Below, one piece after another: positions 39,557-53,694 of a DNA stretch of 64,000 nucleotides. Position 1 is the first letter of the stretch. Every line of letters begins with the position of its first letter. Origin of the DNA: Lophium mytilinum (lineage: Eukaryota); assembly GCA_010093605.1 (NCBI GenBank), contig MU004185.1:2315334-2379333 (forward strand), in the 5' to 3' direction. Under the pieces are notes generated by a model, which was not told the DNA's origin, searched no databases, and worked only from the letters and a program-made list of their open reading frames with translations. Both the position numbers and the translations under genes were made by a program.

Positions 39557-41579
39557 GCGGTGTGAGCGGTGTGAGCAGGCGACGCTCTCTTTTGTTCGCT
39601 AGGCCATCCATTCAATTTGTCTGGCTTTTACTGTGCGGGAGGACTGTGTAACGGCATTGGCTGTCACACGCGCTACACTATGCGTATAACTTTTCTGCTA
39701 GCTTCTGTCGTTGCTCTATACCTATATAGATATAGATTATCCGCCCCAGCCTGTATTTAGGTCCAGCAGCTCCTACCTCCTTTCACTTCTTCAGCAATCC
39801 TCTTGAGTCTTCATAGCGGCTGTACGTAGCTATCCGCAATCGGACCCACTAGCTGTTCATCTTGAGTTCGTGCGGGATACGTCGTCGCCGTGACATCCGC
39901 TTGCACAGAGCCTCTTACTTGTCAACTTATCCTATTTCTTTTGAACTGTTGCTGAAGACCCCAGGATGTTAACTCAGAAAGCCTTACACTCTGTCCCGTT
40001 AAAATAGTTTCTAGTACAGTATATATGAAAATACCGAAGCAGGTTAGTGAAAGTGAGCAACACACCTGAGAACGCTACCATGTGGGGCGAGCTAAGCCAC
40101 AGCGGCGCATGATCACGTGAGCAGAGGGGTCAGACATGGCGTGGAAACACTTATTGCAAGGACGAGGCTAATCATCACCGCCCCCCTTAGTGGATTATAA
40201 CAGCTCGATGGTATCGCTGTAGATCGGAAGTGTATTCTCGAGCTCCGCAGTTTACACTAAAACATCCCAAAAGGCGTGCACGGTTTGTAGCCGTCGTGGT
40301 GAACAAACCGCCGCCCTCAGGTCCGGTTTCCTAGCCGTCTTTACCCTCTCCGTATGCCTTCGCGCTCTTCCTACACCTCCACTGTTGCCACTGGTCTCAC
40401 TCATATGGTCCCACATTCTACTTTCCTCAGCCCTCCTCGCGCTAAGACTTTACGACTACATCAAACCTATTTTGTCGCCGCCAGGCCTAAGATACACTCC
40501 CAAGCGTACAGGCGCATCTCAGATAAAGCTCCAGCCTACCTCATACAACGGCGTCTCTGCTCACGTTACGAAGATGCTCTCAAAGGGGAGTGGTAAAGGC
40601 CCGATCAGCTGGAACCCCCAGGCCGTTCCCCAGGGGACAAGCGTCGATGGAGAGGACAAGATATCACCTCTTTTGCCTAGGAAAGTGGGTCAGTCGGTAG
40701 CTTCATCCCATCCAAACGGACCCCCGAACCTTCTTTTGACAAGGGAGAAATACAAGGATAGAAAGGAACTTGATCAGGGTAGCCTTCTTCAGGTTCTGGG
40801 CAAGAGATCTCGATTCGAGCAGCCGGACTTTTATCCCTCACGTACCTCTCGTTATCCTTCTGCATCTGCGCTACCGCCACGCGCAGCGTTACCTGCACGA
40901 GTAGACTACAGACGTCGGACAGACCTAGCTTCGTCGGCTCCGCTCGTAGCTTCTTCGAAATGGGCAAGTTCAGGCCATGGGGAGTTAAATAATACCGGCC
41001 TCCAGCGCAAGCGTAGTCCAGTGGTTTTCGACATGAATCCCCCAAATTCTGCACGGCTGGCTGCTATTCAGGGGAATCAACCGGGGAATTTCTCCATCAA
41101 CTGGGATGATTTCCCTCCTCATACCCAGCAACAACGCCTCCAGTATGGACAAATGCTGCAGCTGCAAGCTCAGGCTCAGGCCCAGGCGAGAATGAACCCT
41201 TCCATGTTGGGCGGTGTCGGCGGCATTAAGGCAATACAGCCCGTGACCCCTCGAGAGTCAATAGAACCGCAAGATTACGCAAAGCAGATTTTCGACTCTG
41301 TGGCACTGGCGAACGCGGGCGCTGCGGCGGCGAGGGGGCAACAGATCACGCTGACGATTGAGGGAGAGAGTAGAGCCGCGAGCAGCGATGTCGACGTGGA
41401 AGATTTAGATCACGAAGAAGTCTCATACCTTACCCATGGCGTTCGTCCTTTCCAAATGGCGCCCGCTCAAAGCGCCGGCTTGGGGAGCAGATCTAGCGAT
41501 ATTAAACAAGGCGGAGGAAAGGACCGAAGTTCCTCAAGCCTGTTCACAAATTATACTATATCTCAGGACATGACAACTG

Positions 41580-44500
41580 CGGGCGGTCTCCGGGCAGGCC
41601 CCTCAAAAAGGCCCCTTCGTCACGTGCTCGCTAGCTTATTTTATAAACAACACAAAATCTTTAAAATTAACACTGCCACGTCAGTAGCCCCCCACGTAAA
41701 AAATCACAACTCTACTAATATTCGTCGCAATTAGGATCTAACGCAATAGATTAATAGCTACGTGTCTACGCATTACAGCCAGCGCGTAGGGTTTAAATGG
41801 AAGTAAGAATGCGTTATTAATTAATAGCAGGGAACCGCGCACTTAACGCGCCCGTATAGGTGTATTTAACATAGAAATCCTTACTAATTTTATTAATTTT
41901 AACGTTAAACAGCTTCTCTCTCTTCTATCTTTATTTTCTATCTATTCTCTACGTGCGTAATGTCTAATCTATTATTAGATAATAAAGGAAGCCCTCTTTC
42001 TTTATATAAATCCTTAATTAAAAGGCCTCCTCTACTACCTTATATTATTCTATTACTATACTTAGCCTATATGCAGTCTTTCTATTAATAGCCTTCCTAT
42101 TTTATGCAGCCTTTATACCTGCGGCCTACTTAATTTACTTAATTATACGCTTATATAAACGGCCAGGCCTATAGCTATACGCCTAGCCGTAAAGAGAGGC
42201 TAATTCTAATTAAATTAACACCTCTCGCACCTACGTAGAGTATACTTTTATACCGGCCGAGTATCTAGAGCTCTAGTCCTATACCTTTTATAACTCTAGC
42301 CCCTATAAATTACACTAAAAGTAGTCTACTAGCGTATTCTACTAAGTTTCTATTACTTTTAGATTCTATTAAGTTATTACCTACTCGCCAAGAATATTAT
42401 ATATATATAACTTCTTACTACTATACTTCTACCGCCCTAGAATATTACTATATACTCTCTAATAAGCCCTAGCTTAATTTTAACCCTTTAACGCCCCCCG
42501 CGCCTCGCCCTTTATAGGTTCCAAGCCCCTAATTACACCCCTAATTAGTGCCTATTATTAAAGGGATAATTAATTAAATTCTAGCTTACTACCTCTATAA
42601 ACTAAAGAACGGTAAGGCGTATAAGACGCTAGATAAGGCTATTAAGAGGTACCTTAATTACTCCTTTTTTAAGGGGTTTTTAGGCGTATGTAATGGCGGC
42701 TTACTATAGAAAGATACTAAAAAATAGCATATTTATATTATTTATAAACACTATAGTAAAAATACTTAGAACTATTATAAGCTTACGGACTTTAAGAAGA
42801 AGGGGCCTAGTAGCAGGTAGAGAGAGGACACTATAGTATTATAATTTAACTACTTATAGGTAGTCTATATAGCCTATAAGAAGCTATATAAAAACCTAGA
42901 GGACTATATCTAGATTTCTATAGTTATATACCCTAATTACGTCCGTAAATACAGCGCGGTTCCGCACGCCGCGCACTTAATAATGCCTAATCTAATAGCC
43001 TATATTACTTACTAAGATCGCCAGCCTAAGGCTATTAAGGCCTATTACTATGCTATTAAGCTATGCCGCATAGAAGAGACTTATGCAACTACGGCGCGTT
43101 AACTAGGGCTCCGGGAATTAAAAATATCTAAAAAAAAGTACTATAATATAGCTTATAAGCTGTATACTCTTCTATATAACGCGCGTATAAAGTAGAACGC
43201 CCTCTCTATCTTAGAGCTATCTCTCTATAAAAACGGCTTTAAATATTGCTCTTGCTACTTCTATAAAGTTAACCCGCGCACTAGCTACTATATTACCCGT
43301 AATCTTAAGTAAGTAGTCTTCTAGCTACTAGGCTAGAAGAATTTTAGCAAGCGCTTTATTATAGACTACTGTTGTTAAATAGACGCTATATTTAATATAA
43401 ATAGGGTAAAGCTAAAGCTTAGCCTTATTACGGGCGTAATAAATACTAGATACTTCTTTCCGGCTATATAGTCTCTTATAAAGGAGGAGGATAAGGCCTT
43501 CTAGGCCTTTCTATTAGCCGTAGCTAATAGAAATATATAGTAAGAGAACCGCGGGCCTAAGGTAATTATAGCTAACTTTAGAAAGGGGCTAAGGGCTGCC
43601 CTTTTAGCGGGCAAGTTTATTAGTATTATTCTACAGCTTTATTAGTGGCATGCTGTAAAGGCAATAAAGAAGTATATTAATAATAGCGTTAATAAAGGTA
43701 AGAGCTATACCCAGCCTAAAAGGGAGGCAGCTAAGGCTATATTCTAGCTATATATTTAATCTAAGATGGAAGAAGAGCTTAAAAAAAATCGCTAAGCGGT
43801 TTTAGATTACCTCCTTAAAATTAATAAGCCCTGGTTCTAGAATATATACATAAAGAAAGAAGAGTACTTAATAACAGTCTATATCTAGTAAGTTTTAGAG
43901 CTTCTTTTATTATTATTTTAAATTTTTCTATTATTTTTATTATCTATATACTCCGCGCGTATTAAAGATAGGTATATTATAAGGATTTAGCGTATAGAGG
44001 CATACTTAGCACGCCTTCTATATTAATTCTATATATAGGCAGGTGCGAGCTTATATATAAGGCTCTATAGCCTACCTATTTTTGCCTATATACTCGCTAT
44101 AAACTAAAAATATATAAGAGTAGCCTATACACGGCCTGCGTATATTATATTACGCCGGCGTACCCATTATACTACCTACCTTATCTTATTTTCTTATTTA
44201 ACTTTATTAACTTATACCTTGCTAGAAAGCTTCTAAATTTTAGAGCTACCGGCTCTATACACTCTAAAGGTATAAATGGAGCCTTAAAGTACTTTATAAA
44301 CCCCCAGCTAAGCCTTAATAGATGCGTAAGAAAATTAAAAGAGTGGATTAATATTCTAGAACACTATTTAAGAGAGGAAGAATATTAGTATAAGACCGCC
44401 CTACCTAGGAAAATTACTCTTAATTATTACTAAATGTTCTTTACGTCTATTAATAGAAAGATTACTTACTTTGCGCTCCTCCGGGTATTTAATTTACTCC

Positions 44501-45844
44501 ATAAAGCTTACGCCTTGCCTTTTCTAGAGCGCACGCGGTATACTAATAAGGATTAGACTCCGTCTTATTATATATGCAATAACCTGCGTTAATTTAGCCT
44601 ACTATATATATATTACCTCCTGCGTGTAATTCTTATAGGCACGCCTATTCCCTTAGAATATATTTACCCCCGCTGGCGTATTATATTAGCCTATAAGGTT
44701 TAAAAGAATTAGTAGCTTTATTTTATAGAGGGTATAGTTCTCTATAGTAATTTAGTATTAGAATATATCCTTAAGCTTAATAAAATGCGAGACTTGGCCC
44801 TCTATATTATTAACGCCTGCGCAGGCCTTCTAGATAATAACGCGGCTAAGATTACTATATAAATTAAGGCCTTAGAGGCTAAGATTATAAAGTAATTAGA
44901 GAGAAAGGCTAAGCTCTATTAACTATAAAGTAATACAGAATTTACTATTATACTATTAAGGCTTTCTTAGCTATAATATAGAAAATAACACGGGTAGATA
45001 AATAAGCAGGCTTTAACTAGTGTAGAGGTTGCTAAGCGTTCTACTAACACTTATTTATAAAAAGAGGCTTAGACTAAGAGAAGAAGAACTCTATAGATTA
45101 ATACTAAGCTAATATATAACCTTATAAAATTTAACGCTAGTATTATAGAGAAGCTAAACAACATTAACAAGAGTAGCAGTAATAAGGATAAGGATAAGAA
45201 GGAGGAGGAGCCCGTGGAGCACGCCGAAAGGTATAAGGAAGAAGTAGGGGTGCTAGAGGAGGATATTAAAATTAATAAAAATATATTTCTTAGTAATCTA
45301 GATAATAAGAATATTACGCACGGTACGCCGCACGGAGATCTATACCTAAATTTACAGCTAATCCCGCCTCTACTAGCTTCTTAGCATGCTAAGAGTATAG
45401 GGCTACCGCTCTAGAACCCTATTTAACGTAACTATAAGCGTGTAAACGTTAGAGGCTTAGATAAGTTAATTCTTAATACTAAGCCTATTCTGGATAATAG
45501 TTCTAGTCCTTCTAGGAAGGCTAAGAGAGGTCGTCCTAAAGGGAGTAGAAAAAGAGGTAAAAAAAGAGGTGGAAAAACGGGTAGAAATTTAAAGCGCCCG
45601 GCATTATCCCAGGGACCTAATAAGGCCCTAGGAACAAAACGCGCCCGCAAAAATAATAATCTAATAGTATTTAATAAGGCTGCAATATAGTAGAAGAAAT
45701 GCGTAAAATTTAATAGAGTTATTAATTTTTTAGTATTATATATAAGGCCCGTAAGGCCTATAAGTATTATAATATTTATAAAATTTAGCTATATTAGCAT
45801 GTAATAAAGGGGCCTTTTTAAGGGGCCTGCCTAGAGACCGCCCG
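41580..45844 (+). mobile_element. Mutator-like element (MULE), RIP-mutated
   Basis: TIR CGGGCGGTCTCCGGGCAGGCCCCTCAAAAAGGCCCC mirrored at ~45809-45844; 9-bp TSD TGACAACTG / TAATAACTA; relic motifs DA.FN.NR.KL.L, PKVIIA.F.KGLRAA, LQL..WHAVKAIK, SWIM-like segment, AT-hook KRGRPKG. Confidence 0.9.
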
Positions 45845-46241
45845 TAATAACTAAAGACTAGACCCGTAAAAGATGCCGACTTATTACTATAGAAGGCCGG
45901 AGCATAGGTAGAACCTAAAATTATATTAAGTCTACTGCTTTAAGTAGTTAGTTTCTATAATATTTCTAGGTCGACACCGCAACGTATAAAGGGTGCGGCC
46001 GAGTGTATATTTACCTTATATAAGTATCTTACTAAAATCTATAATATAGCTCTATAATAACTATAACCGCATAATAAAAGTTCTTTTCTTAAGGAATATA
46101 ACAATTAGGCCTTTCTAAATATCTCTAACTTTTTAGGAACTTAATATCTTGTCGTGGTGCTAAAATACAGGTCTAAGAAGCTACTAATTTAGGGTTACTT
46201 TAATGTTCCTCGCCTCGCGTAGCTAGTAGAGATGTAAATAT

Positions 46242-46900
46242 GTGCGCCCCTAAATATTAATTAAAGAATATTACTAATTTTCGCTAATTATTGGCAATCG
46301 GGAACAAAATTAACTAATTATTTTAACATTGGCCAATGCTTAATTATTAGGCTAATTAGACTAGTTACTTAACGGGGGGGCAGCCCTCTATTTATTAAAC
46401 AGGGTTATATAAGCTAAGAATTACTAATAATTAAGGTTATACACGCCCCTGATTACTAATTAGAAGGGAATACAAGTTAATTGCCGAAATATTAAGGTTG
46501 TATAAGCCTCTAATTGCTAATTAGGAGGGAGTATAAGATTACCCTAATTTTGCAATTAGGAGGTGTTTCCCCCCCGTTCACTAATAAGGTAAAATTAGCT
46601 AATTATACCTCTAAGAAATAAGACGGCTAGTTCTTAAGATAGAAATTACCGCCTAAGGTAGCTATAAGTAGTATTAGAATATACCTCTATACTAGGTATT
46701 CTAAGTGTTTCTTAGATTTAGAAGGTAAATCTCCCCTCCCGATTAGCAATTAGGGGCTTATGCTACCCCCTGTTCGCCAATTATCCTAATTACCCCAATA
46801 ATCAAGCATTGGCCGATGTTAAAATAATTGGTCGATTTCGTTCCCAATTGCCAATAATCAGCGAAAATTGACAATAATCGTCGATTGGTGTTTGGGGGGG
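46242..46900. mobile_element. Non-autonomous TIR element (MITE-like, ~660 bp)
   Basis: ~115-bp inverted repeats (~46247-46360 vs ~46787-46900); candidate 9-bp TSD TGTAAATAT (46233-46241) / TGCAAATAT (46901-46909); no ORF. Confidence 0.8.
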
Positions 46901-47888
46901 TGCAAATATACACTCGGCGGCACCCTTTGTACGACGATCTCGAACTCAAGCGCGGTCCAGCTCTCGACTTCCCCGAGATCCTGGGTGAGGAGCACCGAAA
47001 ATCCACATGGACCGAGATCGGGAGGGGGTATAAAAATCATTCGCAGCGATATCCTCTCACAGAGGTCCTCGAAGAGTGCTTCCAGCAGCAGCACAAGCCG
47101 AGCGCCAGCACGAAAAAGGAAATTTCCAGGAGGTACAGTATACCGATTGACAAGATCAACGTATGTATCTCTAATCAGACGCTGTTAAAAAGCTGATATG
47201 TGCAGAACTGGTTCCAGAATCGCAGAGCAAAGGTGAAACAGGACTTGAGGAACCAAATGGTCAACTTCGATGGACTTTGGAAGCGGGTCTAAGTATTGTT
47301 TAGTTCATTGATCATATATAATAGACGAGGCAGGTCTCATTTCTCTGGTGCGTGGGTTTGGAGTATGCTATCATTGTCTCATGAGCTCTCTCTAGCGCGA
47401 GCTACTCTATTTGCTATCAGCTAACTCTTATTTATTTTACTGGATCACCTTCTCATAGAGCTAGGCTTGTCTGTTTTCGCGCTCGCCCATAGTGTGGTTT
47501 CTCCAACGTCAATGAAATGTAGCAAAATCTCCGCGGTGAATATAAAGCCGCTAATCACTCGGTGCTATCAGCAGAGAGGCATGTATGTCCCATTTCGACC
47601 GCGTAGTAGACCTTCTATGAATGGGTTACGGGAGGATTTTCTCTATGTGCTGCGGGGAACTGCGCGGCGGTAATATGCACGGTATCACGGCTGTACAGTA
47701 CATATCACTCGTGATATGCTAGGTCTACTATTACAGCTCGAATTCGCTGATTATGAGAACTCGCATAGTAATATAGTTGTTATGCACACGCTCCAAAGCG
47801 TTTTCTGACTCTGTATTGACACCTCTATCAATAAGTTAACTTTCAAGGAATCCGATGCGTTGCATCCGTTAATGATGAGAAATGGAGC

Positions 47889-49913
47889 TCAGATTTTGGG
47901 CTGCAATCTTTCCCAGCCGTTATTTCTTCTCATTCGATTTCCTGGACGCCTCAAACGCACTGGTGTCATAGTTGGTCGCTGGACTACTGTAGAAACTCGA
48001 TTCTCGTGGCTAGAGTTCCGGAGCATCGCAAAGGTGGTGCCATAGCCGACTACAAGAATCTTGAGAGAACTACCTGTGATCGCAACATCATCTACAATAC
48101 CCTGGAATAACTGCAGGAACATTTCCGCCCACCGCTCGTCATCTCTGTTCGCTTCAAAGAGATCTTGGGCTTCCACGACGACGAAGCACTTTGAGAGTCT
48201 GGTGAAGATTCCACGTAACAATTGTGCCCACTCTGCGTCTGTATGATCCGCCCCGATCTTTACAAAGTTTAGTTCGTGAAGATGGTTCTGCAGAAGAGTC
48301 GGTTGGTTTTGAAGTAATTGAAAGACTAGGCCTTTTAGGACCTCTGCTACTGTAGGAGGTCGGTCGTGGGAGCGCAGAGGTGCAATGTTCCAGATTACGT
48401 GGATGGACCTTTTCTGTAAAAATTTGACAACATCCGCGGCGAACTCTTTAGCTTTTGCTTCTGCGCGAGGGCCGACTTTGACCAGAAAAAGCGAAGATCC
48501 GTCGGTTGACATCCAATTTCCTAGAGCGGCTAAAAGGCTCGAAAGTTGCGTGGTTCGTGTGTTTCGAGTGTTTGACCGAGTAGCAATAGAGAGTACTTTG
48601 TAGAGTATTTCGTGTGGACAGGTCTTGGGTTTCAGGACGGACAGTATTTGAGAGAATTCGATCTCGTAAATACGAGGCTTCATGTGGGAAACATCAACGT
48701 GAATGCTCTCGGTGATAGCTTTATTACCTATAGGATTCCAGTCAGCATGACACCCTCGATAATTATGCGCGGTGCGGTGTAAGGTCATAGAGTGTATACA
48801 CCGTAATTTTATCATAAACTTACATGTAGCAACTTGCAGCACATTGATGACCGTCTCTTCAACTCTAACCTGCATTTCCTTCAGCTCTAGTTGCATAGCG
48901 TGTAGCTTTTCGTCTCTTTCCCTTGCCTCTTCGTCTCTTCTCCTTGCCTCTGTGTGTAGTATTTGCATAGTGATGTTCATGTCACGAACCTCCGCTCGGT
49001 TTCCGGAGGTGGCCACATCATCAACCGTTCTCGCACATAGTTTGATCTGTTCGACCGTGTCTTGGTATTCGAGTTTGTACGGCTTGAAGATTGCCGAGCG
49101 TATGCGTGCTGCAAGGCCACGCTTGTACCAGTTCACTGCTTTCTGCAGGAACAAGATGATGTGAGCGTATAGGCGGGATATTGCCGCTTGCATATCTTCA
49201 GTTTTGAAAAGCTCGGCGCTTAATTTGGTTTGACGTAATGCTTCGCCGATAATGGCAAGGGCCTGAGCGAATTCCTCGACTAATTCAGCGTAGACTATGA
49301 TACCCTGGGGAAGTGTTAGCGTATGGTAAAAAGGGCCTAATATAAGTGTACATATGTAATCACAGCCCCATCAATTTTCGTGTAAAGAGGCGTGGGACGG
49401 AAATACATACAACGTACCTGAAGAACGAACTTGACTGAGCCCCAGGCCAGGCATAGATATTCCGGGTGGTGCTGGGCTAGGACGTCCAAAACATTACTGT
49501 AGTATAGTATTGTTCCAGAAAATCTCTGAAGCCATTTCATAACCCCAGTCCTCTTCTCCCTTTTCGTGTCGTAACGCTGCTTTATATCCTCCATGACATC
49601 TACCACATCTTTCATGCAAGTGTTTCCATCCAGTATCTCGCTGGCCTTCCCCGGGAGCTCCGTTTCGACGAATTTCTTTGCCTCATCGTAGGCTTCCTGG
49701 GCTATATCCTTCCTAGAGGTGGCATTCTGTATTAGCGCATGCTTTCGTGAAAGGGCGGAACTGCCCGTGCTCAGATGTAGCGCAGAACAGGTACACACAG
49801 CCTTCAACAAGGGTTTTTACGTACTTCGGAACGGAACAAGGTCTGTACGAGGATCTTATGAAGCATCTATTCGTGACAGCAGCGATGCCGTCTTCTGAGG
49901 TAGGGACGGGCAT
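47889..49913 (-). CDS. DUF7708-like helical N-terminus plus degenerate NACHT-like P-loop domain, no C-terminal sensor repeats
   Basis: YSNVLDVLAQHHPEYLCLAWGSVKFVL, LYAHIILFLQKAVNWY, coiled coil, WMSTDGSSLFLV, VLKGLVFQLLQ, CFVVVE; start (49913 or 49866) uncertain. Confidence 0.75.
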
Positions 49914-50353
49914 GGCGACAGGTTTGGACGTGTTGGCCGAGAGTGCTTGGAGTATTTAGGGGCACTGCCCGGCCGGAAGGAAACACGAAACATGAGAGTT
50001 GTTCTCATAGTAAGGGCTGGGCAGTGGTGGGGAGAGTTGAGGCGAAGCTGGCAGGCTGGTTCTGCACCCACCTGGCCACCGAGGCAGACTTCAGCCTCGT
50101 GGAAAAAGAAAACATGCCAAGCAGTATCCTGGGGCACATTGCATTTGGGGGCCAAAGTCGTTGCCCAAGGCAAACCTCAGCCTTGGCCATGCTTATATCT
50201 CAGCTTTTTCTTTCACAACGACAACGGTCGAGTCTGTCGTCTTCTACAATCATTCACTGTCTCTTTTCAAAATTGTAGAAAACAAGGATTTCAGATTCAG
50301 AGATATCAGTTCAATGACGATAAAAATCCGACGATCTCAAGAAGACTCGTAGA

Positions 50354-52662
50354 ATGAATCCATCCTTGGGATCCAGCGCGAATGCATCCACGAGTCAGCC
50401 GAGGAAACGAGACCGAGAAGAATGGAGCAACGGGACGACCCCCAGTGTGGAAGAGCCTCAAGAAATACTTCGTAATGTCCAGGATGCAGATGTCAAAGGA
50501 AGAACTACAAAACGCGCCCGTAACTCTCCAAATCCAGTTCCATTTTCTCCGAAGGGTCCTCGAAAATATATAATCGCTCATCTAGTTGAATGCGATCGCG
50601 AAGGAAACCATAAAGACCATGCCTCTCGGGCAACTTATCTGGACACTCCACGACTATATGCTGGAGATAGCAAAGCCAGCGTTCTTCGTGGTAAGAAGTT
50701 CATCGCCGAAGACGGGCTCCATACCGATCTACTCGAAGAGCGCGGCATCCACTTTGTTGTCTACAGGAATTACGACTGCAGAAATTATCACGAACATGTC
50801 AAAGACGACTTCAATCCGCTTCCACTGCCGCAAATAAAACGGGAAGTTCTGGCAGGCCTGAAAGCCCACTTTTTTGATCTCCCAAAAGATGGCGACGATG
50901 CTGTGGCCCGATGGGAGAACATTGGAAGCCTTTCGATAACTCTACAGCAAACGCTTGAAACCATCAGATATCCTGGACAACTCAAGCTCGAAGCTCCTTA
51001 CACAGCCTTTTATCATGGGCGATCTCTTCTTGCAGACCACGCGTCTGGTCGCTCTGGTATCTTGGAGCCTTTACATCAGGACCACCTGCAGTCGCTTCTG
51101 GACTACGTACTGGGTTTTTGCGCGGATGACTACAAAGCTGCAGATGTGCTTTTTGCGATGGGACTAGTTGATAAGCAGCATTTCCAGAAACTCTTTCCAC
51201 CAAACGAAGTTCTTGTCGACGCTAAGGATCCGCAACCGTTAGCATACAGTACCATCGACTGCGCACAAAATCATCCCCTCGAGCTTCTTTTGACCGTTTG
51301 GAACTGGCAGTATGACGGCCTCTTCCGACAAAAGAATAGTCTACTCACAGTGACTTGGCCGTCCTATGATGGTCAGATCCCAATATCAGCATTACCGGTA
51401 TATCCGCTACGGTATGATACCACCGGATTAAAAGAGAGACTGATCGAGCGAGGTCAAATGTTTTGGGAATGTCGCAAGCGGAAGTTCGTTAGCTATGAAT
51501 CTTCAAATTCTGCGTTGGAGCTACAAACGGTAAGCGCCTCAGCTCCCCAATAAAACTGGCTACTAACCCGAAAACTGAAGAGCAACCCGAGATACATGAT
51601 AGACATCGCCACTTACAGGCAGCTGCATCTTGACGCGTTTTCTTCCCCGCAGAACGATGAGACAGAGCTCGACGCCACGGACCTTGAAGAACCGCCCGAA
51701 GGCCCTTTCCTTTTGCTTCTGCCCGCTACTATTCGTGGTTACGGATTCCATGACAAAAAGTGGAGTAAGGAACGCTCTCGACCGAAAAGTGACAAAGACT
51801 GATGAAAGCAGAGATGCTCTCCTTGGAGCATATTCGAGAAGTCGTCTGGAACAAAGAAGCTTTCGAACGCCGACTAGTGCTGAAATCCCAGAAGAAAGAG
51901 CTGATCAAGGCCCTTATATCTGTTCATATAGCCGTCAATGGCTCATATACCAGTGATATCATTGAGGGAAAGGGAAAGGGCTTGATCATCATGCTCCACG
52001 GCGGGCCCGGTACCGGGAAGACTTTGACGGCCGAAAGCGTAGCGGAGCTCGCCGAAAAGCCGCTTTACAAAGTCACCTGTGGGGATATCGGCACAGACCC
52101 CGAGGGTGTGGAGAAGTACCTCGAGTCTGTTCTCTATATCGGAACTATCTGGGGCTGTGTCGTTCTTCTGGACGAAGCCGACGTCTTTCTGGAAGAACGC
52201 GTTCCGACTGATCTTCAGCGAAATGCTCTCGTGTCCGTTTTTCTTCGCGTCCTGGAGTACTACGATGGCATTCTCATCTTGACGTCGAACCGAATCGGCA
52301 CGTTCGACGAAGCATTCAAATCGAGAGTGCAGTTGGCGATGCACTACCCATCTTTGGACCGGGATGGACGGTGGCAGATATGGAGCAACTTCCTTAAATC
52401 TATGGTACGAGAGGGAGAGAATGTCAATATCGACGAAGTCGGAGATAAACTTGATCTTTTAGCACGGTATGAGCTGAACGGTCGACAAATCAGGAATACC
52501 GTGAATACTGCGAGGCAGTTGGCACGCTATAAGAAGGAGACGCTTGCATACGCGCACTTTGAAACTGCGATAGATGTTACGAATGAGTTTGAGGAGTACA
52601 TCACTAAAGCTCGAGGACATACAGACGAGGAAAACGCGCGGATGCAAGGGCACAGGCACTGA
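50354..52662 (+). CDS. Fungal AAA+ ATPase with DUF7025-like N-terminal region, 3 exons
   Basis: LIERGQMFW, RYMID, GYGFHDKKW, DIIEGKGKGLIIMLHGGPGTGKTLTAE (Walker A), VVLLDEAD (Walker B), FDEAFKSR, LNGRQIRN. Confidence 0.93.
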
Positions 52663-52698
52663 ACATGACGATTCCTACACTTTCCAGCAACCAGTATA

Positions 52699-53694
52699 TC
52701 AATTATAACCGCTGAACTTGCACGATCGTCTCTTGTGCCGCTTCAGATGCTCGAATTCTGCAAAGGACCGTATGCAAATGTCGCATACATGAGGCCTAGG
52801 TTTGTGGAGTTTCGGGGGCGGGTATAGTTGGGTAGTGTTTTGGGAGCCTGTAGCGTTCCCTGGTTTGGATGGGACATGCTCCCATGCAAGTTGATTTGGA
52901 ACGACACTCCAGTCATACTCCTTTGCTAAATCCTTCCAAACTACATCATCTATCATTCTAGATCTTGTTGATGTATAAATCGATTGAATTAGACAAGCGT
53001 GGCTCTCGGACACAGGGATGGTCGATAAAATTATATCTGTAGTGCTCGATGCACGAGTTGCAAGGTGTTCCGGCGTCGCACTACTCTAATTTTAGTTCCT
53101 GAGGCCTGGAAAAAATGTTGCTTAGAGAACCGACAGCTACTTTCCGAATTCTACAGTTACTGCAAGCTCTCACTACGAGACTGTCAGTGATGGTTTTGCG
53201 GAGTAGTACCGAAACCACTTACAGCTACGCATCGAGAAAGCACCCATTCGCTGGGCAGAGATCCACCCGGGCGATAGGAACGGAACGAAAGGAGAATCCT
53301 CTCGCACACGCTTTCGTCCTTTCGTCAACTCCAACTTCCGAGGCTTAATAGCCATCCACTCGTCCGTGCTGTCCCGAGATGGTAAAGCCGAATCGGTAGC
53401 CACGCTAGTTACGCAGGTGCGCCGGTTCTCAAGAGCAGATAGTCGACATTTATAGCGGACGTGATCTCCGGTCGTCATGTCCTGGGAGATCGTGTACTTC
53501 GTAAATAAACTAGAAGGCCTTCGACCATGCTCTTCAACCATAACCTTGTGATTTCCCACTGAAAGTCGCCTGCTTCTAAGGCTTGCCGTTTTTATTGGTC
53601 CAGTGGTCCCCTCGTTGTTTTTCTCTACCTCCTTTCGCACGTCCTTAGCATCGTCGTCGTCACCGGGGCCTTTGAGCAGAAGTGAGATGTCCAT
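52699..53694 (-). CDS. Small Zn(II)2Cys6 transcription-factor-like gene followed by an out-of-frame C2H2-type finger (possible pseudogene)
   Basis: Spliced RACSNCRIRKVA|CDAGTPCNSCIEHYRYNFIDHPC (introns ~53222-53173 and 53134-53081), stop at 52960-52958; next frame KPRPHVCDICIRSFAEFEHLKRHKRRSC. Confidence 0.7.

Follow-up and report, generated by a model that had tools for sequence, protein, structure and literature searches.

The gene neighbourhood of an AAA+ ATPase in Lophium mytilinum

We have analysed a 64-kb stretch of DNA (hereafter the window) whose source is Lophium mytilinum (Dothideomycetes, Mytilinidiales), as two stretches within it match NCBI proteins of this fungus: 40574-41734 is 100% identical to BU16DRAFT_559018 and 53694-53176 is 99% identical to BU16DRAFT_559021. 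The subject of this work is a group of four genes, A to D, in which B, encoding a DUF7708 protein, and C, encoding an AAA+ ATPase, stand head to head ∼540 bp apart and are flanked by A on the plus strand and D on the minus strand (Table 1). A first-pass annotation of the sequence had described the group as a symmetric module, namely a divergent NACHT-like/AAA+ pair enclosed by two inward-pointing paralogs that share a peptide and end in DNA-binding domains. The divergent arrangement of the pair was read correctly, and the right-hand gene does close just beside the ATPase stop codon, since the stop codons of D (52699-52701) and C (52660-52662) are 36 nt apart. C and D are intact here and B probably is, too.

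The peptide common to A and D, SSLFT[NK]YTISQDMTT, is identical at 14 of 15 residues and is present as SSLFTNYTISQDMTT at 41534-41578 (plus strand) and as SSLFTKYTISQDMTT at 53514-53470 (minus strand). These were the only two copies found in a six-frame scan of the window. The BLASTP alignment of A with D (28/72 identities, E = 9e-7) agrees with the earlier description of the flanking genes as paralogs. Similarity is limited to ∼75 aligned residues running through the peptide, plus ∼15 residues located after TE1, a transposon inserted in A. In this second part, the remnant of A past TE1 extends the likeness (D..R..CRL...E.R) with a local score of 38 that was reached by 5 of 1000 shuffles; beyond it, a further match (LEL.KG) is at chance level, being reached by 793 of 1000 shuffles. 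When the 15 peptide codons of A and D were compared, 3 were the same, 11 showed synonymous differences only and 1 carried a replacement, with 32 of the 45 nucleotides identical. Because 11 of 15 codons differ only synonymously, the two copies are old and the peptide is under selection, which indicates an old paralogy with selection at the peptide level. The same comparison rules out that the peptide is shared by chance or through a recent DNA copy.

Table 1. Features of the A-D locus (positions in the window)
Feature	Position	Strand	Description
Gene A, 5′ part	40574..41579	+	335-codon frame from ATG; shared peptide at its end
TE1	41580..45844		Mutator-like transposon degraded by repeat-induced point mutation (RIP), 4265 bp; terminal inverted repeats, target duplication, weak MULE match
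Gene A, remnant between transposons	45854..45986	+	RIP-scarred; 5 in-frame TAG/TAA stops
TE2	45987..46929		Non-autonomous transposon, 943 bp; inverted ends, TA flanks
Gene A, 3′ part	46932..47292	+	Homeodomain exons 46932-47160 and 47206-47292; intron 47161-47205; stop 47290-47292
Gene B	47889..49816	-	DUF7708, long helices, then P-loop-less STAND/AAA-like alpha/beta domain; 5′ end approximate
Gene C	50354..52662	+	Three exons: disordered N-terminal tail, N-domain with DUF7025, AAA, AAA_lid_13
Gene D	52699..53694	-	First exon from 53694 to 53222-53176; peptide 53514-53470; finger end 52702

Linkage of the ATPase, the motif and B in fungal contigs

The AAA exon of C was used as a query against metagenome contigs and retrieved 224 relatives. 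The best 80 of them (50-78% identity, loci with L numbers below) were kept and merged at ≥97% nucleotide identity into 61 non-redundant groups. These contigs carry neither annotation nor taxonomic assignment, and open reading frames (ORFs) were taken from stop to stop without splicing. The motif of the shared peptide (YTIS[EQ]D...) was detected first by a regular expression and then by a hidden Markov model (HMM), and was counted at an independent E-value (iE) below 1e-3. Nine hits at this threshold lie outside the sequences used for building the model (L008, L010, L014, L018, L026, L027, L030, L077 and gene A). B was searched by tblastn with its two exons, which matched in 34 and 35 of the 80 loci.

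Results showed that 25 of the 61 groups carried the motif, 27 carried B and 14 carried both, while the 23 groups with neither were mostly short contigs. Among the 22 groups with at least 5 kb of flank upstream and 3 kb downstream, the corresponding numbers were 12, 15 and 9, with 4 groups having neither. In the clade of ≥64% identity (25 groups), the motif was present in 18 and B in 12. The first-pass annotation had named this linkage beforehand as the check on which its proposal depended; run from the AAA side, the check found the genes linked. Reversing the same 1.2 million residues gave no motif hit with iE<1 and none better than iE 2. Furthermore, motif hits became sparser away from the ATPase gene: 24 fell within 0-2.5 kb (203 kb surveyed), 5 within 2.5-5 kb (140 kb), 3 within 5-7.5 kb (109 kb) and none within 7.5-10 kb (69 kb).

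The order and orientation of the genes varied. In 21 of its 27 groups the B-like gene was upstream and divergent; elsewhere it was downstream, either in tandem (3 groups) or convergent (3 groups). The motif gene preceded the ATPase gene on its strand in 12 groups; where it followed, it was convergent (8 groups) or in tandem (2 groups). Linkage between motif and ATPase thus outlasts rearrangement. In L001 and L002, which are closest to C at 77-78% identity, a motif gene converges on the ATPase gene from downstream, like D, and B is missing from the 7.6-10 kb of each flank. L014 copies the layout of the window, with a motif fragment converging on B, a divergent B/C pair and a motif gene converging on C. 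As this is the only other group in which the symmetric quartet recurs, and in a degenerate form, the quartet proposed at first does not survive as a conserved unit; the four-gene symmetry seen here is a local accident, with duplicated motif genes on both sides. Clustering by blastp of the 1833 ORFs of the 61 groups and the window placed C in 62 sources, B in 28 and one motif-protein subfamily in 9, and revealed no fourth widely recurring family. Likewise, tblastn with the A N-terminus, the A homeodomain, the D exons, or the P450 and peroxidase genes that neighbour the group matched in none of the 80 loci. The conserved unit is therefore the ATPase plus motif protein(s), with or without B, and the three kinds of gene form a recurrent, rearrangement-tolerant neighbourhood in fungal contigs.

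Most modules have a single motif copy; the window has 2, L008 and L010 have 3 and L014 has 5. The arrays of 3-5 motif genes next to one ATPase gene span L014:11119-17778, L008:1457-6769 and L010:1380-7445; the first includes three tandem motif genes besides the two that correspond to the window layout, and its convergent copy shows, by eye, a leucine-zipper-like heptad stretch upstream of the motif. In loci with 2.3-3 kb between B and C, the ORF filling the gap carries ...LKYTISEDRTTDAFKRRKVQFMALGQP....

The motif and the proteins that carry it

The motif spans ∼25 residues and can be written h-x-Y-T-I-S-[EQ]-D-x-[TS]-x(5-6)-[RK]-x-[RK]-x2-[LF]-x-A-[LIV], in which T, I, S and D are invariant in 28 sequences. 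It is the only part that aligns among its carriers, the flanking sequences being unrelated. Pfam searches on 24 motif ORFs returned C2H2 in two (one just under the cut-off), Zn_clus in one, UBM in one, a weak PHD-like match in one, a stray sub-threshold match in another, DUF7025 in four and nothing in 14. Together with the homeodomain of A, the C2H2, Zn_clus, UBM and PHD-like carriers match the initial description of these proteins as mosaics of transcription-factor domains.

In four groups among the more distant ATPase relatives (L057, L063, L069 and L080), the motif and DUF7025 lie within one stop-free frame, that is, the motif is part of the N-terminal tail of the ATPase itself. An in-frame Met precedes the motif in three of these four fusions (not in L080). 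Weaker TISxD matches (iE>1) occur in the tails of the distant ATPase relatives L048, L055, L061 and L065. A second conserved peptide, LQDYQMQLMLLEQQNKKRL(M)MARQEQ, was noticed near TISxD in the N-terminal tails of more distant ATPase relatives (L034:8094-8798, L046:8096-10837, L057:1857-4163 and L069:7578-9671), and gene A contains a faint look-alike of it, LQYGQMLQLQAQ, seen by eye.

Homologue searches with the A open frame or the first D exon found the genome's own models only. Against 1.84 billion representative proteins, a profile made from the A/D region yielded three matches at E≤1e-3: the two models of this genome and P0003, a 359-aa protein encoded on an 8.9-kb contig of a Logan assembly, which starts inside helix 3 of a homeodomain and has the motif close to its end. 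When the motif region of P0003 was used in a word-based search, only P0004 was added, a 576-aa protein of Mytilinidion resinicola (BDZ99DRAFT_574850) named C2H2-type by its source. P0004 has two N-terminal C2H2 fingers (by eye) and the motif 45 residues before its C-terminus, and it aligns with D at 26/47 identities (E = 1e-12). A protein-atlas search with its C-terminus offered no usable feature match, and the structure matches, Bro-N/KilA-like ones among them, had template-modelling (TM) scores below 0.5 and were given no weight. Finally, a metagenome scan for F[NT][KN]YTISQ matched 148 stretches, none of which was confirmed by tblastn.

The earlier statement that both flanking genes end in DNA-binding domains holds for A, whose homeodomain matches PF00046 with E = 1.6e-12; for D, the matches are sub-threshold or by eye. 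The first exon of D is intact. Its terminal finger, C-x2-C-x12-H-x4-C, has Cys instead of His as last ligand and matches zf-C2H2 with E = 0.08-0.13 (13.2 bits against a cutoff of 25.2). A Zn2Cys6-like six-Cys pattern at ∼53170-53020, seen by eye, needs the removal of an unannotated 53-nt intron, and Pfam found no Zn_clus in the unspliced frames. Thus, the putative DNA-binding domains of D are weak. The public model BU16DRAFT_559021 (P0002, 165 aa) ends in ...LRACSLRN, before both zinc-finger-like stretches, and is probably wrong.

The ATPase and its DUF7708 neighbour

C matches DUF7025 (1.1e-10), AAA (PF00004, 2.6e-15) and AAA_lid_13 (1.7e-11) in Pfam, and shows the features of a classical AAA+ protein: Walker A GPGTGKT, Walker B LLDEAD, the sensor-1/arginine region TSNR..FDEAFKSR and the lid. 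The AAA core is near-invariant across the 61 groups and the window, including GPGTGKT, VTCGDIGT, LLDEAD and TSNR..FDEAFKSR. From these conserved motifs, C looks like an active ATPase. In addition, three of the four long-flank loci with neither partner show ATPase damage by eye (GPETWKT in L052, LLEEAD in L073 and in-frame stops in L078), so that solitary copies of the ATPase may be decaying.

The N-domain of C (residues 68-377) was modelled confidently, with a predicted local distance difference test score (pLDDT) of 78 and a predicted TM score of 0.70. Foldseek gave no match at E≤1e-3 with this model. A wider fold search returned generic small beta-barrels only (best Z 5.8) for the stretch 267-357, in the DUF7025 part. 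The model therefore suggests, through a weak match, that the N-domain ends in a small SH3/KOW/Tudor-like barrel, a shape that is common among peptide-binding modules. At its opening, the N-domain carries an H-x-V-x-C-x5-H-x2-H cluster (50579-50620, residues 76-89) that is invariant in 23 of 23 aligned sequences and is a possible metal site. A complex prediction of the N-domain with the motif region of D scored 0.00 in a run made without alignments or controls, and it carries no weight either way.

The closest solved sequences to C are Msp1/ATAD1 (Msp1, E = 1.8e-8) and VAT. C resembles Msp1/ATAD1 and Cdc48/VAT in having a single classical AAA domain with an N-terminal domain ahead of it and a proposed docking of motifs. 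It differs from them in the absence of an aromatic pore loop 1, in an N-domain with no solved relative beyond the generic small barrel, and in that its partners are encoded beside the ATPase gene, which is unusual for eukaryotes.

Regarding B, DUF7708 was recognized on its two exons with E = 1.7e-15 and 8.7e-29. The first-pass reading of B as NACHT-like needs qualification: no NACHT hit was obtained, NPHP3_N scored 23.1 bits, under its cutoff of 24.8, and a Walker A GK[ST] was found in 0 of the 20 aligned family members, window included, where the consensus reads V.VG.RA...AKE. No C-terminal repeats (WD40, ANK or TPR) were found either, as the frame stops ∼50 residues past the alpha/beta domain, and the homologues align up to query residues 492-493 and then end at the same C-terminus. 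The model of B (pLDDT 73) consists of long helices followed by an alpha/beta fold of the ASCE (additional strand, conserved glutamate) class, of the type found in AAA+ proteins and in signal transduction ATPases with numerous domains (STAND). Foldseek matched this model to Orc5 (3.4e-4) and other ORC/Cdc6 subunits, TnsC, MuB, CED-4, Dark and Sr35, with E-values from 3.4e-4 to 8e-3 and a probability of ∼1.0 for Orc5, CED-4, Dark and Sr35; a PDB search with the B sequence was negative (E = 0.57). The C-terminal half of B is thus like STAND and ORC/Cdc6-type NTPases in its alpha/beta fold and its sub-threshold NPHP3_N match, and the B family differs from them in lacking the Walker A GK[ST] and any winged-helix or repeat region after the fold. 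B is not a true NACHT protein of the NOD-like receptor (NLR) kind, and, because it has neither Walker A nor ligand-sensing repeats, it cannot be a canonical NLR switch.

A proposed docking motif for the ATPase

Since the ATPase gene, B and the motif genes occur side by side in many fungi, they probably function as a single, so far undescribed system. The simplest role for the motif would be that of a docking element of the ATPase, since it is fused into the ATPase tail in four groups, and we infer that it docks its carriers onto the ATPase. Classical AAA+ ATPases engage adaptors via short linear motifs. The docking surface would most likely be the conserved N-domain of the ATPase. Ancestrally, the motif would have been in cis, within the N-terminal tail of the ATPase; in the clade of the window it would have been split off into a separate gene, whose duplicates then acquired DNA-binding and other domains by fusion, if the presumed direction of change is right. 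The outcome would be a set of "tagged" nuclear proteins, clients or adaptors that are bound by the ATPase and remodelled or released by it, with B as a facultative third subunit or regulator. A recurring ATPase module, with a docking motif that was split from the tail and diversified and with a facultative B, is in our view the best explanation of the whole, and we put it forward tentatively, at a little short of an even chance.

Several points weigh against this explanation. The sampling began at C, so that the linkage counts run from the AAA side only, and the 61 groups are not independent lineages, since a number of them share a few source samples and could be paralogous copies within a single genome. 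Most of the 27 sequences behind the HMM belong to the same loci, and the model is independent for the nine hits listed above only. No motif at iE<1e-3 was found in 13 of the 27 B-positive groups, nor B in 11 of the 25 motif-positive ones. In the loci where the motif ORF lies upstream on the same strand, it could form one gene with the ATPase ORF through a long intron; the split would then become a fusion, with the link itself unaffected. Lastly, the aromatic pore loop 1 is absent in C, where KWYG of Msp1 aligns to GTDPEG. As these aromatic residues are missing, it is doubtful that C unfolds its clients, and remodelling is meant here as the looser claim.

Other explanations can be set against the same data. 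In a surveillance or non-self-recognition device, the idea of the first-pass annotation, the transcription-factor mosaics with the motif would serve as baits or decoys watched over by the NLR-like B, and the ATPase would execute or reset the response. B does have a plan like that of fungal NLR-like proteins, with an N-terminal DUF7708 and a STAND-like fold (CED-4, Dark, Sr35), the motif genes vary in copy number (2, 3 or 5) and in their fused domains, and one copy here is a pseudogene amid transposons and RIP. Such gene turnover is typical of fast-evolving recognition loci. This account is weakened because B lacks the switch and often stands without the motif nearby, and because 11 of the 25 motif-positive groups have no B, even the closest relatives L001 and L002 with their 7.6-10 kb flanks; the 20 B members have neither Walker A nor sensing repeats, and no cell-death or effector domain appeared in the domain scans or the ORF clustering. 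We consider it rather unlikely. Less likely still is that the motif proteins are ordinary transcription factors controlling B and C, with the motif as a lineage signature, e.g. an activation or localisation element. It is true that fungal gene clusters often encode their own regulator, that several motif proteins have a homeodomain, C2H2 or Zn_clus, and that the motif includes a basic R/K-x-R/K patch. However, the DNA-binding domains belong to unrelated superfamilies, other carriers have UBM or a weak PHD-like match, 16 of the 24 motif ORFs have no Pfam family and 14 no match at all, and a regulator signature leaves the motif fusions in the ATPase of four groups unexplained.

The trio might also be cargo of a mobile or selfish element that moves or amplifies it together, giving paralogues, variable layouts and a patchy presence. 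The size of the family (224 relatives in the scan), the variable arrangements, the lack of B in the closest relatives and the transposons at the locus would all fit this idea, which we nevertheless regard as highly improbable: across the 61 groups the module has no recurrent transposase, recombinase or terminal repeat beside it, both transposons are insertions into A rather than module boundaries, and the strong conservation of the AAA core fits a cellular enzyme. As for the idea that four common types of fungal gene are neighbours by chance and that the peptide is left over from a local duplication, DUF7708 and AAA genes are indeed multi-copy in fungi, the A/D similarity is short, and whole A/D exons and the homeodomain were unmatched by tblastn in the 80 loci. 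The co-occurrence counts, the decay with distance, the reversed-sequence control and the fusions contradict it, and we give it hardly any credence.

A more ambitious reading is that of an undescribed three-component system widespread in Pezizomycotina, in which a dedicated AAA+ ATPase lacking an aromatic pore loop and a pseudo-NTPase, NLR-like partner act on diversifying proteins tagged with the 25-residue motif, many of them mosaics of transcription-factor domains. We think this reading unlikely. If it were true, fungi might have a surveillance or non-self-recognition device with tagged baits, or else a novel switch for DNA-binding proteins, operated by an ATPase whose gene lies beside those of its clients.

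Relation to known systems

Among described systems, the NLR/effector pairs of the NWD2/HET-S type are close in design: neighbouring genes of a fungus, one of which is NLR-like, are connected by an amyloid signalling motif of ∼20-25 residues (PMC4344463, PMC9815663), the motif stands within otherwise unrelated sequence, and genomic linkage is the main evidence, as it is here. The differences are that here the NLR-like protein does not carry the motif at its N-terminus, no B-like ORF having matched the motif HMM; that a module usually has one motif copy, so that there is no templating pair; that the partner is an AAA ATPase, with B lacking a P-loop and repeats; and that the motif has a polar character (T-I-S-E-D-x-T with a basic patch). 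The matching passages of the account of amyloid NLR pairs (PMC9815663) mention no AAA-ATPase neighbour. Literature searches with DUF7708, DUF7025, AAA_lid_13 or their accessions gave no match, and no published description of the ATPase/motif/B trio was found in a search at the level of abstracts and selected passages.

Few conserved multi-gene modules outside metabolism are known in fungi, and fungal NLR-like genes are mostly without known function. The module described here ties three families of as yet unassigned role, namely DUF7708, DUF7025/AAA_lid_13 and a new peptide motif, to one another, and linkage and fusion together provide a testable docking hypothesis for all of them. The HMM of the 25-residue motif is a handle for presumed ATPase partners in any fungal genome. 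Also, two public gene models at the locus, BU16DRAFT_559018 and BU16DRAFT_559021, can be flagged as probably wrong.

Gene A and its transposons

The genes beyond A-D are ordinary and unrelated to the group: upstream lies a P450, and the downstream side has a family-2 peroxidase and an AMP-binding enzyme. The contigs of the public run X1, whose kind is presumed, cover small pieces of the locus only (including 49049-49231 and 52794-52945; depth 2.5) and have no bearing on expression or splicing.

The left-hand gene had been annotated as a transcription-factor-like gene. Its homeodomain end stands, with WFQNRRAK in helix 3 (the PF00046 match being on the public model, P0001), whereas its integrity does not: two transposons and RIP-scarred stops lie inside it. 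The 5′ frame has no Pfam domain and is 100% identical to residues 1-319 of BU16DRAFT_559018 (P0001). GC content falls to 0.33-0.37 across 41.5-46.5 kb. Within this region, TE1 sits in the coding frame of A, immediately after the peptide. Its terminal inverted repeats are 49 nt long and 86% complementary, and it is bounded by a 9-bp target duplication, 41571-41579 (TGACAACTG) and 45845-45853 (TAATAACTA), whose copies agree at 6 of 9 positions, all three mismatches being G>A or C>T transitions of the RIP type. The MULE match (PF10551) has E = 3.9e-5 and 24.4 bits against a cutoff of 27.6, and was obtained in one of six frames with X at the stops. TE1 has a GC content of 0.35, and the TpA/ApT ratio is 1.71 in TE1 and 2.00 in the remnant of A, compared to 0.55-0.70 in the flanking exons. 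TE1 is therefore similar to the RIP-degraded Mutator-like transposons of ascomycetes in its long terminal inverted repeats, 9-bp duplication and weak MULE signal, as well as in its AT richness and the dinucleotide indices typical of RIP; it is the insertion that broke A and no part of the module. TE2 has inverted ends of ∼30 nt that are 93% complementary and TA flanks at 45985-45986 and 46930-46931, and by this criterion alone it is Tc1/mariner-like.

Removal of both elements and of one duplication copy each restores a single frame, which starts at the ATG at 40574, passes the peptide and the remnant and reaches the homeodomain exons. In this reconstructed frame, the five stops fall in the 131 nt of the remnant. 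A is a dead homeobox gene, killed by RIP and the insertion of the two transposons, although an original stop might be among the five and the homeodomain might formerly have been a separate gene. BU16DRAFT_559018 (446 aa) joins ...GGGKDR to TKIDNN... across ∼5.3 kb and leaves out the peptide. This long splice across two transposons is probably an annotation artefact.

Three X1 contigs start matching exactly at 41580 and are unlike the sequence before that point. Because they diverge exactly there, the end of TE1 at 41580 is repeated elsewhere. One of these three contigs, which match the terminal repeat (41580-41629), has a high word depth of 139.9; other copies of TE1 thus exist and may be transcribed or abundant.

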